A program made the position numbers and the translations under genes. A stretch of DNA of 32,265 bases from a virus (lineage: Duplodnaviria; Heunggongvirae; Uroviricota; Caudoviricetes), in the IMG/VR virus record IMGVR_UViG_2651869694_000010. One strand, written 5' to 3'. The notes beneath the pieces were generated by a model that saw nothing but the letters and a program-made list of their open reading frames with translations, ran no database searches and was not told where the DNA came from. Shown piece by piece: positions 3,076 to 32,265 of the stretch (position 1 is its first letter; each line of letters opens with the position of its first letter).

Positions 3076-3239
3076 AAAAATTCCTTAATACTGATAACTG
3101 GGCGCACTATACACACGTTCCTGAAGAAAGCTATAGTTTTTTGATGGGGTTGAAGATGGCTGGATGTCTAAAATAAACATTGCTTCATATGTTCAACTAT
3201 GCGTTAATGATTGCGTCGGTTTGAAGAACAGACGATATA

Positions 3240-3375
3240 CGAAGTAGTTTACTAAAGCAGTTCTCATTTCAGGTGTTATTCACTTATTCCTTCTTTGAGT
3301 CTCTCCAATTAAGTACGAAGTCGTTTCTGTTATACAAGCCATTTATGCCGAAAGGCTCAAGTTAAGGAATGTAGA
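3240..3375 (+). promoter_or_regulatory. cspB-type 5' leader with cold-shock-gene upstream motif
   Basis: GCCGAAAGGC (3347-3356) about 20 nt upstream of the start codon resembles the conserved element in cspA-family 5' UTRs; boundaries are approximate. Confidence 0.3.
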
Positions 3376-3591
3376 ATGTCAAATAAAATGACTGGTTTAG
3401 TAAAATGGTTTAACGCTGATAAAGGTTTTGGCTTTATTTCTCCTGTTGATGGTAGTAAAGATGTGTTTGTGCATTTTTCTGCGATTCAGAATGATAATTT
3501 TCGAACCTTATTTGAAGGTCAAAAGGTTACCTTCTCTGTAGAGAGTGGTGCTAAAGGTCCTGCAGCAGCAAATGTCATAATTACTGATTAA
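3376..3591 (+). CDS. cspB: cold-shock protein CspB-like
   Basis: [23 protein letters not shown]...VHFSAIQ...[11 protein letters not shown] carries the RNP1/RNP2-like motifs of CspA-family proteins. Confidence 0.85.
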
Positions 3592-3872
3592 AATTCATAG
3601 TTTGTCTGTATACGATAACGAAGAAGGCTGATGCCTGAGTGGAGATACAGACAGAGTGGTGAATATTGGATCTCTTTAATAAATAGTAAGGAGGTCCAAT
3701 ACATGAAACAATGGCCAGCATATTTGGCAATAACTTAATCAGGAAAAGTATGCTAACCATTGTGGTGAAGTGCAGGTTTGCTGCATGAATAGTTTTACAG
3801 CAGAAGCTAACTGCTGGCATAGCAAAACAAAGTGCGTAAGTGGATGACTCCCACAAAAAGTACCACAATATT

Positions 3873-3897: not shown

Positions 3898-3954
3898 TAT
3901 CTGCTTTAAATATGTTATTAAAATATAAAAAATACTTGTTACGAATAAAATCAA

Positions 3955-4125
3955 TCAAGCTACAGCTTTAAGATTTGTCTGGAATACTTTGTTGCAATGA
4001 GGGCAGATCAAAAGGGCACCTTTTTGTACTCTTGAAAAACTGTGTTCTGACTCTTGGGTGCAGTTTGGGCAGGAACATTTAACGAGATAATTACGGCGTG
4101 ATTTTGAGTCTTTACGTTCTGACAT
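3955..4125 (-). CDS. small C4 zinc-ribbon protein (about 56 aa)
   Basis: MSERKDSKSRRNYLVKCSCPNCTQESEHSFSRVQKGALLICPHCNKVFQTNLKAVA has two CxxC pairs; ATG at 4125 on the minus strand is preceded by AGGAAAA. The longer 4176 start is also possible. Confidence 0.45.
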   Translation of the reverse strand: MSERKDSKSRRNYLVKCSCPNCTQESEHSFSRVQKGALLICPHCNKVFQTNLKAVA

Positions 4126-4343
4126 AGGCTTTTCCTGTATAAATGGCCGTATACAGTACACTAAATATGAAAACATATCTCGTATTATTATTTAATATAT
4201 GATTTTCTTTTAAAATAATTACCCACATTTTTAATGTGTCTGTTTTTTAGCGCCGTTGAGAACAACGTTTGCTATAAAAACTAACCCATAGACTCCGATC
4301 TTTTCAAACATATTGCACCATCTGTGTACATCGGGGTGAGGAT

Positions 4344-4559
4344 ATGAAATCAATGGATAAGTTAACAACAGGTATCGCCTATGGCACATCGGCTGGTAAT
4401 GCTGGTTTCTGGGCATTGCAGTTACTCGATAAAGTAACTCCGTCACAGTGGGCTGCAATCGGTGTGCTGGGTAGTCTGGTTTTTGGCCTGCTGACGTATC
4501 TGACAAACCTTTATTTCAAGATTAAAGAAGACAGGCGTAAGGTTGCGAGAAGAGAGTAA
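4344..4559 (+). CDS. S: class II holin (phage 21 S-type pinholin) with dual-start motif
   Basis: [71 protein letters not shown] matches my recollection of phage 21 S and EssD/EssQ; Met1-Lys-Ser-Met4 gives the antiholin/holin alternative starts. Confidence 0.9.
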
Positions 4560-6464: not shown

Positions 6465-6824
6465 ATTAATATTAAATCGGATTATTTTTAGCGCTGAATG
6501 TGAAATTTAAATAAAAAGGACTCTTCCATGAGTCAAAATCCTTGAAATCTTAAGGGTAAGATAAAAGGTCATTAGACAGAATGACACGTTTTATTAATAA
6601 ATAAAGCTATTGTTTCATTCGTGTGTTTTTCTTTACAAAAGTAATCCTTGCTATGGTTGGTTAATCATGCGTTAATGGTGTTCTGGTTTGTTACAAAATT
6701 ATCTGAAGCAGTCATTGTTATAATTTTATTATTTGTACCTCTTGAGATTTCCTTGTTGGTTTTTCTCTCTGATATTTTTTTTCGGACCATTCTGCCCAAG
6801 GGCTAACTTCTTCAAAAGGTAATA

Positions 6825-7040
6825 ATGATGTCTAACAAAATGACTGGTTTAGTGAAATGGTTTAACCCTGAAAAAGGTTTTGGTTTCATCACGCCGAAAG
6901 ATGGTAGCAAAGATGTGTTTGTCCATTTCTCAGTTATTCAGAGCAACGATTTCAAAACGTTAACTGAGAATCAGGAAGTCGAATTTGGTATTGAGAACGG
7001 ACCTAAAGGCCCCGCGGCTGTTCATGTAGTGGCACTTTGA
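6825..7040 (+). CDS. cspI: cold-shock protein CspI-like
   Basis: [36 protein letters not shown]... is a CspA-family sequence, located after Rz as cspI is in Qin. Confidence 0.8.
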
Positions 7041-7243
7041 GGTAGAAAATATTACAAACCATATTCACTTTAGATGCCCGTGTTGCCATGGTTCTCAGTA
7101 TAGAACATCATCTTTTGATGTTTCTGACAGGAATCCTTTCGGGGCAAAATGTATCTTTTGTAAATCAATGATGATTACATTTGATAATATTTCACAATAC
7201 TTAAATGTTAGCCGTCTGTCGTTAGATTTAAGAAAGTGAAAAT

Positions 7244-7267
7244 GAAGGCTCCTTCGGGAGCTTTTTT
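7244..7267 (+). terminator. candidate intrinsic terminator
   Basis: GCTCC-TTCG-GGAGC hairpin followed by TTTTTT. Confidence 0.45.
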
Positions 7268-7311
7268 GCTTAGTGTCTGGTCGATGGATACTCACATATT
7301 ACGGTAACATT

Positions 7312-7542
7312 ATGAAAAAAATAATAGTTTTTTTTAACTCTGAACCAGCAATGGTAGTGCCAGTGATGACCGGAGTTAACACCATCATGCGTGAATATCC
7401 AAATGGCGAAACAACACACCTCACTGTAATGGCTGCAGGGTTTCCATCTCTGACCGGAGATCATAAAGTCATTTATGTTGCAGCGGATCGACATGTAACT
7501 TCAGAAGAAATTCTGGAAGCAGCAATGAGACTCTTGAATTGA
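7312..7542 (+). CDS. hypothetical small protein (about 76 aa)
   Basis: ORF from ATG at 7312 (the listed ORF starts at an upstream GTG, 7273): MKKIIVFFNSEPAMVVPVMTGVNTIMREYPNGETTHLTVMAAG... No confident family assignment; occupies the Qin accessory position between cspI and gnsB. Confidence 0.35.
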   Translation: MKKIIVFFNSEPAMVVPVMTGVNTIMREYPNGETTHLTVMAAGFPSLTGDHKVIYVAADRHVTSEEILEAAMRLLN

Positions 7543-7711
7543 TTTGATTCTAATGCATTGATAATAAATGATAATCATCTTTATCTGTTTGTGTGAAATT
7601 TAGACCGTCGTATGTTGATTATTGCGATGTTTCATCTTATCTTTTATACGTTTGCTCCATATAATTGACACTACTGTGTACCAGGAAAGTCATAACAGAC
7701 TAAAAGAGGAA

Positions 7712-7889
7712 ATGATGAACATTGAAGAGTTAAAAACAAAAACAGAAGCAGATATTTCTGAATATATAACAAAAAAAAATCATTGAGCTTAAGAAAAAGA
7801 CCGGGAAAGAAGTTACCAGTATCCAGTTTACTGCACGGGAAAAAATGACTGGTCTTGAAAGCTATGATATCAAGATTGATTTAATCTAG
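7712..7889 (+). pseudogene. gnsB: gnsB/gnsA-family gene interrupted by a frameshift in an A9 run
   Basis: MMNIEELKTKTEADISEYITKK runs into a TGA at 7784-7786; removing one A from the A9 tract (7771-7779) restores ...IIELKKKTGKEVTSIQFTAREKMTGLESYDIKIDLI, matching GnsA/GnsB-family proteins as I recall them. Confidence 0.55.
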
Positions 7890-28040: not shown

Positions 28041-28050
28041 TGGGGTGAAT

Positions 28051-31000
28051 ATGGCAGTAAAAATTTCAGGTGTACTGAAAGACGGCACAGGAAAACCGGT
28101 ACAGAACTGCACAATCCAGCTGAAAGCAAAACGTAACAGCACCACGGTGGTGGTGAACACGCTGGCCTCAGAAAATCCGGATGAAGCCGGGCGTTACAGC
28201 ATGGACGTTGAGTACGGGCAGTACAGCGTTATTCTGTTGGTGGAGGGATTCCCGCCGTCACATGCCGGGACCATCACCGTGTATGAAGATTCCCGACCCG
28301 GTACGCTGAATGATTTTCTCGGTGCCATGACGGAGGATGATGCCCGTCCTGAGGCACTGCGCCGTTTTGAACTGATGGTGGAAGAGGTGGCGCGTAACGC
28401 GTCCGCGGTGGCACAGAACACGGCAGCCGCGAAGAAGTCAGCCAGCGATGCCAGCACATCAGCCCGTGAGGCGGCAACCCATGCGACTGATGCTGCAGGC
28501 TCAGCACGCGCAGCCAGCACGTCAGCCGGACAGGCCGCGTCGTCGGCTCAGTCAGCATCTTCCAGCGCAGGAACGGCATCAACAAAGGCCAGTGAAGCAT
28601 CGAAAAGTGCTGCTGCTGCAGAGTCCTCAAAAAGCGCGGCAGCTACCAGTGCTGGTGCGGCGAAAACGTCAGAAACGAATGCGGCAGCGTCACAACAATC
28701 AGCAGCCACTTCTGCATCCGCCGCGACCACGAAGGCGTCAGAAGCAGCCACCTCAGCCCGGGATGCGGCGGCCTCAAAAGAGGCAGCGAAATCATCAGAA
28801 ACGAACGCATCATCAAGCGCCAGTAGTGCCGCTTCCTCGGCAACGGCGGCAGGCAATTCCGCGAAGGCGGCAAAGACGTCTGAGACAAACGCCAGGTCTT
28901 CTGAAACGGCAGCGGGACAGAGCGCCTCGGCTGCGGCAGGCTCAAAAACAGCGGCTGCGTCGTCTGCCAGTGCCGCGTCAACAAGTGCCGGGCAGGCCTC
29001 AGCCAGTGCCACCGCTGCCGGAAAATCGGCAGAAAGCGCCGCATCATCCGCTTCAACAGCCACAACGAAGGCTGGCGAAGCCACTGAGCAAGCCACTGCA
29101 GCAGCGAGGTCAGCTTCCGCAGCGAAGACATCCGAAACGAACGCGAAAGCGTCGGAAACCAGCGCAGAATCCTCAAAAACGGCTGCCGCATCGTCAGCCA
29201 GTTCGGCGTCGTCATCGGCCTCATCGGCGTCTGCTTCAAAAGATGAGGCGACCAGACAAGCGTCAGTAGCGAAGGGCAGCGCCACGACGGCATCCACGAA
29301 GGCAACAGAGGCTGCTGGCAGTGCGACGGCAGCAGCTCAGAGCAAAAGTACGGCGGAATCTGCAGCAACGCGCGCTGAGACAGCAGCTAAACGGGCAGAG
29401 GATATTGCATCCGCCGTGGCGCTTGAGGATGCAAGTACGACGAAAAAGGGGATAGTACAGCTCAGCAGTGCGACCAACAGTACGTCTGAAACGCTGGCGG
29501 CAACGCCAAAGGCAGTAAAAGCAGCCTATGACAATGCAGAGAAATGTCTGCAGAAAGACCAGAACGGTGCTGATATTCCCGACAAGGGCCGCTTCCTGAG
29601 TAACATTAATGTTTACAACAAAGGTGAAGTGGATCAGAAAAAGGGGATGCGATACGTTGTGGTAAATGCCCCGGCGGGTGTCCAGGAAGGTAAATATTAT
29701 CCGTTAGTGATAAAAAGGAATGACAGCCATCGGGCATCCCGCGTTGTCATTTCAACGCCAAGTCGCACAGCTAATCACAGAATGAATAACTGTGAGTTTA
29801 ATGGTTTTGTTTGCGCAGGCGGCTTGACGGACCGGGGTAGCTATGCCTGTGGTATGTTCTGGGCTTATTCATCATCGGAACGCGCTATTCATTCCATTCT
29901 GATGAGTAATAAAGGCGATACCGTAGACAGCGTATTCTATATAGAAGGTGGGGCATTCCCCGTAGAGGTTTTTTTAGAAGAAGGACTCTTCGTTACTGCA
30001 CCTGCTTCTGATTATGTTGTTGCTGAAACAACTTATAAATTTGGCGCAACTGATCCTTATTCTGAATCAGTTGCGGTAAATTTAATTTTAGATTTTAAAC
30101 AAGGTAATGGATTTTATAGTTCGTATCCTGTTTTGAGTAAGTCAGATATTAGCGGGAATAAGATTTACGCTAATGATGAAGTTATTGTCCGTAGTCAGAA
30201 CGCGTTAAGGATGATTGCAGGCGATTACGGTGTCATATGGCGAAATGATGGAGCAAACACTTACTTGCTCATGACTGATAAAGGCGACCAGTACGGTGGC
30301 TGGAACGGTCTTCGACCATTTGCAGTAAATAACGCAACAGGTGAAGTGACGATCAATACACCACTTAATTCTCCTAAGGGGATTAAGGGAAATTCTGATA
30401 CAGCTACGAAACTTCAGACAGCAATAAAAATATCTGGTGTTTCGTTTGATGGTTCTACTGATATCACTTTAACCGCTGCGCATGTTGCTGCTTTTGCCAG
30501 AAGAGCAACGGATACGTATGCCGATGCGGATGGGGGCGTTCCCTGGAATGCCGAATCAGGCGCTTACAATGTCACTCGCTCTGGCGACAGCTATATTCTG
30601 GTTAACTTCTATACCGGAGTCGGAAGTTGCCGGACCCTGCAGATGAAGGCGCATTACAGAAATGGTGGTCTGTTCTACCGTTCTTCAAGAGACGGTTATG
30701 GTTTTGAGGAAGACTGGGCAGAAGTTTATACCTCGAAAAATCTTCCACCAGAAAGCTACCCAGTCGGCGCACCAATCCCGTGGCCATCAGATACCGTTCC
30801 GTCTGGCTATGCCCTGATGCAGGGGCAGGCTTTTAACAAATCTGCATACCCGAAACTTGCAGTTGCTTATCCGTCAGGCGTGATCCCTGATATGCGTGGC
30901 TGGACGATTAAGGGCAAGCCCGCCAGTGGTCGTGCCGTATTGTCTCAGGAACAGGATGGCATTAAATCGCATACCCACAGCGCCAGCGCATCCAGTACGG

Positions 31001-31449
31001 ATTTGGGGACGAAAACCACATCATCTTTTGATTACGGCACTAAATCCACGAATAACACTGGTGCACATACCCATAGTATTAGCGGGACAGCAAATAGTGC
31101 CGGTGCGCACCAACACAAGAGTTCCGGTGCATTTGGTGGCACGAACACGAGCATTTTTCCTAATGGTTATACTGCGATTTCAAATCTAAGCGCGGGGATT
31201 ATGAGCACAACAAGCGGTACTGGCCAGACTCGTAATGCAGGGAAGACATCATCAGATGGTGCTCATACCCACTCACTGTCCGGCACTGCTGCAAGCGCAG
31301 GTGCACACGCACATACTGTCGGTATTGGTGCTCATACGCACTCCGTTGCGATTGGCTCACATGGACACACCATCACCGTTAACGCTGCTGGTAACGCGGA
31401 AAACACCGTCAAAAACATCGCATTTAACTATATTGTGAGGCTTGCATAA
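28051..31449 (+). CDS. stf: side tail fibre protein Stf (mosaic)
   Basis: ATG at 28051 after GGGGTGA; N-terminus [30 protein letters not shown] and C-terminus ...[22 protein letters not shown] match lambda Stf as I recall it; the central section is different. Confidence 0.9.
28400..29450 (+). repeat. Ala/Ser/Thr-rich degenerate repeat tract within stf
   Basis: Recurring KTSETNA / SASAA / TKASEA units; GC-rich codon bias leaves all three frames on both strands open here, which explains the overlapping Pro/Arg-rich and Ala/Asp-rich ORFs in the six-frame track. Confidence 0.6.
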
Positions 31450-32021
31450 TGGCATTCAGAATGAGTGAACAACCACGGACCATAAAAATTTATAATCTGC
31501 TGGCCGGAACTAATGAATTTATTGGTGAAGGTGATGCATATATTCCGCCTCATACAGGTCTGCCAGCAAACAGTACCGATATTGCACCGCCAGATATTCC
31601 GGCTGGCTTCGTGGCTGTTTTCAACAGTGATGAGTCATCGTGGCATCTCGTTGAAGATCATCGGGGTAAAACGGTTTATGACGTGGCTTCCGGCGATGCG
31701 TTATTTATTTCTGAACTCGGTCCGTTACCGGAAAATGTTACCTGGTTATCGCCGGAAGGGGAGTTTCAGAAGTGGAACGGCACAGCCTGGGTGAAGGATA
31801 CGGAAGCAGAAAAACTCTTCCGGATTCGGGAGGCGGAAGAGAAAAAGACAAGATTAATCCAGGAAGCGACTGATAACATAACAATTCTGCAGGATGCTGT
31901 TAATTTTGAAATGGCAACTGATGAGGAGGTCTCGATGCTATCTTCCTGGAAAAAATACCGGGTATTAGTGAGTCGGATTGATATAAATACAGCCCCGGAT
32001 ATCGTATGGCCTGAGCTGTGA
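31449..32021 (+). CDS. tfa: tail fibre assembly protein Tfa
   Basis: [58 protein letters not shown] matches lambda Tfa as I recall it; start overlaps the stf stop. Confidence 0.9.
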
Positions 32022-32031
32022 TTAAACGGAA

Positions 32032-32265
32032 TTATGTGTGAGATGAATTATAAATAATTTCAGAGTGAAATTTGGTAATGAATGTGGAGTCATCAGGAAT
32101 GTCATGCAGTACCAATGCATGAGCTCCTATTTTTACATTATTCCCTATATGCACTTTGCCACCAAGGATGGTGGCGTTACAGCCAATGGTTACATTATTT
32201 CCTATGACAATATCCATATCATTAAATTCACCGCGAAGTCCAATAGTTACCCCAGGCTTAATTGA
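32032..32265 (-). CDS. hexapeptide-repeat (left-handed beta-helix) acyl/acetyltransferase-like protein, C-terminal fragment
   Basis: Minus-strand frame is open to the window edge. ...VTIGLRGEFNDMDIVIGNNVTIGCNATILGGKVHIGNNVKIGAHALVLHDIP shows the [LIV]-G-x4 hexapeptide periodicity. The region is AT-rich compared with the adjacent tail genes. Confidence 0.45.
   Translation of the reverse strand, partial: SIKPGVTIGLRGEFNDMDIVIGNNVTIGCNATILGGKVHIGNNVKIGAHALVLHDIPDDSTFITKFHSEIIYNSSHT

Follow-up and report, generated by a model that had tools for sequence, protein, structure and literature searches.

NeuO, which is encoded by prophage CUS-3 of E. coli K1, is an O-acetyltransferase of the left-handed beta-helix (LbH) superfamily that uses a catalytic histidine to modify the polysialic acid of the K1 capsule (PMC3046976), and it affects both phage resistance and virulence (PMC13001214). 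A second prophage acyltransferase, neaT, is a moron of 30% GC that lies after the tail fiber genes of a P2-like prophage, in the opposite orientation, and alters surface-related behavior and virulence (PMC3573123). Relatives of the gene described here have also appeared in print. In the paper on phage JL22 the gene was treated as an enzyme of the cysteine pathway, the reason for its presence being stated as unknown (PMC9603915); in the phiNP paper it was only listed as "fitness" cargo (PMC6456863). A serotyping study of Proteus recorded "two serine acetyltransferase genes" in all 60 serotypes, which its authors considered probably unrelated to O-antigen synthesis (PMC5560731). Our literature search found no functional study of this protein family.

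Here we describe a member of the family at the right edge of the window, the 32,265-nt stretch of viral DNA that was analyzed. It is close to certain that the gene is intact, under selection, of the LbH family, carried as cargo, and not CysE. On what the protein does, our conclusions are more tentative.

Results

The Window Ends inside an Intact, Selected Gene

On the minus strand, window positions 32032-32265 read through 77 sense codons without interruption to a TAA stop, SIKPGVTIGLRGEFNDMDIVIGNNVTIGCNATILGGKVHIGNNVKIGAHALVLHDIPDDSTFITKFHSEIIYNSSHT, in a frame that is still open at the window edge. By a rough estimate, an open frame of 77 codons would arise by chance at 37% GC with a probability of roughly 0.4% per frame. 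The gene call is nevertheless independent of ORF length, because this 234-nt fragment by itself passes the gathering score of Pfam Hexapep PF00132 (32.1 bits, E 8e-8; gathering score 27 bits), and the [LIV]-G-x-x-x-x periodicity is plain in the 77-residue peptide.

Window positions 31400-32265 are 100% identical to several complete E. coli chromosomes, among them that of Ec1120, and the full gene and its neighbors could be recovered by extending rightward into the Ec1120 locus (L001; window coordinate = L001 coordinate + 19399). The complete gene occupies L001 12633-13178 on the minus strand, window-equivalent 32032-32577, and is an intact 546 nt encoding 181 aa, with residues 105-181 and the TAA inside the window. 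PGAP names the Ec1120 copy "serine acetyltransferase" (WP_001026781.1), and an intact CDS is annotated in every copy among the genomes listed.

The earlier note on this DNA had taken the window edge for a fragment of a hexapeptide-repeat gene, roughly the 77 C-terminal residues, AT-rich, on the strand opposite tfa, and in a cargo position directly after the tail fiber genes. All of this held. The translation and the Hexapep match confirm the fragment, the GC content is 36.8% in the fragment and 36% in the full gene as against 51.1% in the whole window, and the stop codon of the gene, which is foreign in composition, lies 10 nt past that of tfa. The note had also allowed for a disrupted gene, but all 181 aa are intact in all the genomes listed, and for the plus-strand ORF at 32065-32265 being the real gene. 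That ORF, which ends at a position matching the last base of the window, has 66 aa and no Pfam match, and allele substitutions fit the minus frame. Between chromosomal and P1-like-plasmid alleles, dN/dS in the minus frame is 0.12 at a dS of 0.44, and the acetyltransferase gene is thus under purifying selection.

A Moron at the Right End of a Lambdoid Prophage

Ahead of the cargo gene lie, in order, a lom-like gene, the side tail fiber gene stf, and the tail fiber assembly gene tfa. The stf gene (28045-31449, plus strand) encodes 1134 aa by the ORF list, the PGAP start being 6 nt later, and its product combines an Ala/Ser-rich shaft with HxH-repeat motifs near the C terminus; it forms the receptor-binding module, and the cargo gene is appended to it. 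The identity of tfa (31449-32021, plus strand) is given by Pfam Caudo_TAP (E 5.6e-38), by the PGAP annotation in L001, and by our census of neighbors. The tfa and acetyltransferase genes are convergent, and a terminator scan found no terminator in the 10-nt spacer between their stops (32022-32031). The HxH motifs of stf read GAHTHS, GAHQH, GAHAHT, and GSHGHT; its low-complexity Ala/Ser-rich stretch, which is long, also gives rise to several long ORFs that are spurious, both in other frames and on the complementary strand (e.g., 28448-29269 and 28548-29297).

Rightward of the acetyltransferase gene in Ec1120 there follow, in turn, the remnant of a Cin-type invertase gene, a gene like dinI, and prfC of the host. 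The prophage, of the lambdoid type, is integrated next to prfC, and the acetyltransferase gene is thus the penultimate intact cargo gene at its right end. The remnant, on the plus strand outside the window (L001 13263-13391, window-equivalent 32662-32790), is a pseudogene of a Cin/Pin-type DNA invertase that has an internal stop and retains only the C-terminal helix-turn-helix: 31-35 readable residues are 61-68% identical to that part of Cin (Pfam HTH_7, E 6e-7). We searched the prophage region for a hix/gix/cix-like crossover site and found none, nor did we find long inverted repeats flanking the region. A live invertible switch in this prophage was rejected on these grounds; the tail fiber switch is dead, and the remnant beside the gene suggests that the prophage descends from an invertible tail-fiber cassette.

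Elsewhere in the same prophage, in the Q/lysis region (PGAP: ydfT, rrrQ, and rzpQ-like genes), the Rfam cspA thermoregulator model gives two full-length matches (window 3215-3654 and 6670-7086, plus strand; 156 and 115 bits, gathering score 78), and the prophage therefore carries two cold-shock-protein genes with thermosensors in their 5' UTRs.

The cargo gene has candidate signals of its own. About 40 nt upstream of its ATG, on its own strand, is a promoter-like site, TAGAAA, 17 nt, TATAAT, which is a match to the sigma-70 consensus only. On the plus strand, a hairpin with a T-run lies within the acetyltransferase coding region (32102-32122; L001 12703-12723) and could, as a consensus match only, stop late-operon transcripts about 80 nt past tfa; the scan found 1 such site, and the mean for shuffled sequence was also 1.0.

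We next consider how widely the gene occurs. Sensitive blastn detected a related gene in 315 of 5426 complete E. coli genomes (in 240 of them at ≥80% coverage), at 348 matching places, 290 chromosomal and 58 on plasmids. By identity, the alleles comprise groups of ≥95% (64 records), 80-90% (181), and 60-80% (71). Megablast counts are lower, 91 genomes for the gene alone and 59 for the exact window fragment, because this less sensitive search misses the 80-90% alleles; a query of tfa plus the fragment was covered in 227 genomes. DNA resembling tfa, on the other hand, matches 4443 of the 5426 genomes, so that the gene is an optional add-on to a very common module. Its deviant GC content, its opposite orientation, the upstream promoter-like site (again by consensus only), and this patchy distribution lead us to read the window as ending inside an intact moron, that is, a gene added to the phage genome and dispensable for lytic growth.

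Might such a gene have no present function, either as a passenger riding with the tail-fiber cassette or as the shadow of a real plus-strand ORF? A recombination-prone region beside a decayed invertase gene would suit a passenger, but the low dN/dS and the intact CDS in every listed copy count against one, and the 66-aa plus-strand ORF matches no family. We give this explanation very little credence.

The Protein Is CysE-like but Almost Certainly Not a Serine Acetyltransferase

The full 181-aa protein matches Pfam Hexapep with 50.6 bits (cut-off 27). Its best NCBIfam models are EpsC NF041874 (84.6 bits, cut-off 150) and cysE TIGR01172 (76.3 bits, cut-off 210.65); the WcaB models give 60.3 bits (cut-off 196) and 59.4 bits (cut-off 194.65), and PRK11132 gives 52.5 bits against a cut-off of 397. 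Models for Vat, CatB, Maa, and LacA match weakly, at about 29 bits versus 60-85 for CysE, EpsC, and WcaB. Among PDB sequences, serine acetyltransferases match best (E about 1e-13), over residues 40-167 only. An AlphaFold2 model of P0002, an allele 90% identical to the cargo protein and modeled as a monomer, reached a pLDDT of 91.5 and shows four helices at the N terminus and then a beta-helix interrupted by a single inserted loop; the top 50 Foldseek matches of this model in the PDB are all LbH serine acetyltransferases, with a TM score of about 0.7 on the query. Both lines of comparison place the protein in the CysE-like branch of the LbH superfamily. The assignment to the LbH acyltransferases made in the earlier note therefore stands, whereas the WcaF/LacA/Maa-like enzymes that it had put forward for comparison are not the nearest relatives; these belong to the CysE/EpsC/WcaB branch.

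The gene is also a member of a catalogued phage protein family, PHROG 2154, which it matches over its full length (E 4e-77, residues 1-180 of 181). Because PHROG 2154 has no assigned function, membership says nothing about what the protein does.

The database name, if right, would mean a phage-borne serine O-acetyltransferase that raises the supply of O-acetylserine and cysteine or perturbs the CysB regulon. Besides the PGAP name itself, the closest solved structures and NCBIfam models, those of CysE and EpsC, favor this reading, and the likeness extends to architecture, in that a helical segment at the N terminus leads into an LbH domain with a single inserted loop. However, the protein scores below every curated cut-off, at 76 bits where the cysE model asks for 210.65 and 84.6 where the EpsC model asks for 150. 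Pfam also found no SATase_N domain (PF06426) in the full protein, a domain that is present in the true CysE next to the Proteus homolog discussed below; by itself this absence is not decisive, because short EpsC-type enzymes lack the domain too. The two motifs with which serine acetyltransferases bind and activate serine are missing as well. When the protein is aligned with the solved structures, the Asp-His dyad of serine acetyltransferases falls on Ser87-Tyr88 and the Arg-His motif of the inserted loop on Met121-Asp122, whereas P0074, a bona fide short EpsC-type protein, keeps both motifs. CysE and the cargo protein also differ at the C terminus: that of CysE is an Ile that binds CysK, and the cargo protein ends in ...NSSHT. 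We conclude that the cargo protein is almost certainly not a serine acetyltransferase, that a role in cysteine supply is highly improbable, and that the gene, although already catalogued under a PGAP name and in PHROG 2154, is probably misnamed.

A Tyrosine Has Replaced the Catalytic Histidine

The position of the catalytic histidine was followed in alignments of 36 close database relatives and of homologs from 172 loci (phage records, IMG/VR, and GTDB genomes), which form 82 clusters at 80% identity. In three solved serine acetyltransferases, the histidine of the Asp-His pair falls on Tyr88, whose codon lies outside the window, at window-equivalent 32314-32316. The residue is His in all evaluable clusters but two, two of the 82 clusters being fragments that do not cover the position. 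The exceptions, both with Tyr, are the cluster of the window gene, which comprises 44 loci with E. coli alleles from chromosomes and P1-like plasmids, and Hafnia phage yong2, whose protein is 52% identical. Metagenomic relatives (P0006-P0015), down to about 52% identity, have Tyr as well. A nearby histidine of the E. coli alleles, His96, is not conserved in the Tyr-bearing Hafnia relative. Since Tyr is retained from 52% to 100% identity in a gene under purifying selection, its presence does not reflect decay, and the His-to-Tyr change is old.

With Tyr at the catalytic-His position, plain O-acetyltransferase chemistry is not safe to assume. The protein may be a pseudo-enzyme, or an enzyme of changed chemistry that no longer O-acetylates: it would then bind either CoA or a glycan, interfere with the LbH trimers of the host by joining them, or N-acylate an amine, such as an amino sugar, without the help of a base. 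The alignment of Tyr88 with the catalytic His of the solved enzymes and of the other evaluable clusters argues for such a change, as does the retention of Tyr over 52-100% identity under purifying selection. On the other side, the protein still shares the remainder of its fold and the CoA-facing C-terminal coils with the His-bearing relatives, a Tyr is able to serve as a base or a hydrogen-bond donor, and we found no precedent for an LbH pseudo-enzyme in phages. Weighing these points, we consider a pseudo-enzyme or an enzyme of changed chemistry unlikely, although it is the main rival to the function proposed below. QdtC and WlbB, described by Thoden, Holden, and co-workers (in Biochemistry, 2009 and 2010), are reported to be LbH N-acetyltransferases that dispense with a catalytic base; it is therefore plausible that the acceptor has become an amine.

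Relatives Recur beside Tail Fiber Genes and in Isolated Islands

The arrangement seen in the window, tfa followed by a convergent homolog with a gap of -36 to +48 bp, recurs in several phage settings: in lambdoid prophages at other integration sites, in P1-like phage-plasmids, in many IMG/VR contigs, and in Hafnia phage yong2 and Citrobacter phage phiNP. Of the 82 clusters, 18 have a tfa-like neighbor that is convergent and ≤60 bp downstream, as do 12 of the 25 clusters with viral contigs; both counts are lower bounds, since the detection of tfa relied on a jackhmmer profile of our own making.

In the P1-like phage JL22 the homolog, named sacF, is situated between U and tfa, within a 4.3-kb segment next to cin. 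Two inverted repeats of 602 nt that are 99% complementary (2327-2928 and 7189-7790 of locus L005) enclose U, sacF, tfa, and the variable ends of the fiber genes. This is the invertible tail-fiber (C) segment, and sacF is therefore flipped with it.

Several individual loci deserve mention. In the P1-like E. coli plasmid p3 (L006, NZ_CP059910.1; 3502-5303), IS100 (istA/istB) is inserted between the tail fiber gene and tfa; the convergent acetyltransferase gene is intact, and its 3' end overlaps that of tfa by 37 bp. Salmonella enterica strain s1 (CP191473.1) has three different family members at three loci (L094, L121, and L144); their identity to the query is about 40-49%, and two or more of them converge with tfa-like genes. 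Two tandem paralogs on the same strand (3139-3756 and 3917-4534) are found in Orbaceae bacterium ac157xtp (L124). In Pseudocitrobacter vendiensis (L095) a lone family member (3953-4540) sits between putative host copA and cueR genes, which were assigned by reading ORF translations only; the few neighboring ORFs that were read included no phage genes.

Other relatives lie at the ends of prophages, beside int or an HNH gene, or form single-gene chromosomal islands, and most of the chromosomal relatives are such islands, outside polysaccharide loci. Little is consequently gained from genomic context about the substrate. The islands and the prophage-end positions by int or HNH genes follow a pattern typical of defense or accessory cargo, and they raise the possibility that the protein acts on a small molecule, as a Vat/CatB/Maa-like detoxifier, or on incoming phage, as a new single-gene function at a tail-fiber-proximal defense hotspot. 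The weak matches to the Vat, CatB, Maa, and LacA models could be read in the same sense. Against this, those xenobiotic acetyltransferase scores of about 29 bits compare with 60-85 for CysE, EpsC, and WcaB, and a search of the protein against the PADLOC-DB v2 defense models returned no family at E up to 0.1, so that a known anti-phage defense system was rejected as a candidate. We regard a detoxifying or anti-phage role as rather improbable.

Two contexts, and only these, point to glycans. At the edge of the Proteus O-antigen locus, the homolog has cysE immediately ahead of it and a glycosyltransferase gene of the GT2 type (EpsE/TuaG/WcaA-like) immediately behind. A Salmonella homolog lies near tail fiber genes and a GtrC-type (GT_STM0557_N) gene.

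A Proposed Role in Acetylating Envelope Glycan Precursors

The most likely role of the protein, to which we assign a probability of roughly 0.45, is acetylation of an envelope glycan precursor, with lysogenic conversion or receptor masking as the outcome. The Proteus and Salmonella neighbors just described support this role, as do the recurrent link to tfa and the precedents of NeuO and neaT. We envisage the following sequence of events. In the lysogen a sigma-70-type promoter of its own would drive transcription of the gene, opposite in sense to the late tail transcripts. The product is a soluble 181-aa protein in which four N-terminal helices precede a left-handed beta-helix, the architecture of short acyl-CoA-dependent acyltransferases of the CysE/EpsC/WcaB type. 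In the cytoplasm it would form a homotrimer, the form typical of the superfamily, with acyl-CoA at the subunit interfaces, and would pass the acyl group on to a sugar in a precursor of an envelope glycan; the acceptor may be a nucleotide sugar or an undecaprenyl-PP-linked unit of O-antigen, colanic acid, or a similar polymer. The exported polymer would then be altered, as with WcaB, and the changed cell surface would amount to lysogenic conversion or would mask a receptor against superinfection. With Tyr88 where the general-base His would be, a shift in acceptor or in chemistry is probable, for instance, toward an amine that needs no base, or toward Tyr acting as the base.

Several observations weigh against a glycan role. 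The Tyr88 replacement could abolish or change O-acetyl transfer, and most chromosomal relatives stand outside polysaccharide loci. In Proteus, all 60 serotypes have the gene, and the authors of the serotyping study doubted a part in O-antigen synthesis (PMC5560731). In addition, the site downstream of tfa is a hotspot for insertions in general, and synteny with the tail fiber genes may therefore reflect co-transfer rather than shared function.

A bolder version of the glycan proposal is that the LbH enzyme is paired with the receptor-binding module and modifies the same glycan that the adjacent fiber reads, the Tyr88 clade being derived, with a new chemistry or acceptor. If so, the enzyme would be inherited with tfa, the two would be flipped together in P1-like phages, and the surface of the lysogen and the host range of the phage would switch in step. 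This extended scheme is speculative, and we think it quite unlikely to be correct in full.

Discussion

About 4-6% of complete E. coli genomes, that of ETEC H10407 among them, carry genes related to the one at the window edge, as do many P1-like phage-plasmids. The uniform label of these genes, "serine acetyltransferase", invites wrong metabolic inferences, and at least one paper has treated the gene under cysteine biosynthesis (PMC9603915). If acetylation of envelope glycans is indeed their role, these genes would represent a common and unrecognized serotype- or receptor-modifying factor that travels with tail-fiber cassettes among lambdoid, P1-like, and other tailed phages, with a bearing on phage host range, phage therapy, and O-antigen typing. 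Of more specialist interest are the recurrent coupling to tail-fiber cassettes and the selected replacement of His by Tyr. A His-to-Tyr change maintained under purifying selection raises the question of whether this is an LbH transferase with Tyr as its base or one whose acceptor has changed.

How does the cargo gene compare with the systems described at the outset? It shares with NeuO the status of a prophage-encoded soluble LbH acyltransferase carried as cargo. The two nevertheless belong to different LbH branches: OatWY, a relative of NeuO with a solved structure (2wlc), matches the cargo protein only marginally (E 1e-3). They differ also in the active site and in control, because NeuO has a catalytic His, paired with a Trp, and its gene a 5' heptanucleotide repeat for phase variation, whereas the cargo protein has Tyr88, and we found no tandem repeats in or around its gene; NeuO-like phase variation was ruled out on this basis.

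With neaT the resemblance is one of niche. Each is a single AT-rich gene, convergent with tail fiber genes, patchy in distribution, and presumed to act on the envelope. NeaT, however, is a membrane protein of the Acyl_transf_3 family (PF01757) with an unrelated fold, so that what the two genes share is position and logic, not homology.

By analogy, the best functional model for the family is WcaB, the colanic-acid acetyltransferase of E. coli. Like the cargo protein, it is a short (about 160 aa) CysE-like LbH enzyme, and its substrate is the lipid-linked repeat unit of a polysaccharide. The cargo protein differs in scoring 60 bits where the WcaB cut-off is 196, and in being encoded in a prophage, outside wca or any other polysaccharide locus; moreover, WcaB presumably has His at the catalytic position, as we align it, where the cargo protein has Tyr. 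The gene most likely belongs with the prophage-borne, surface-modifying acyltransferase morons.
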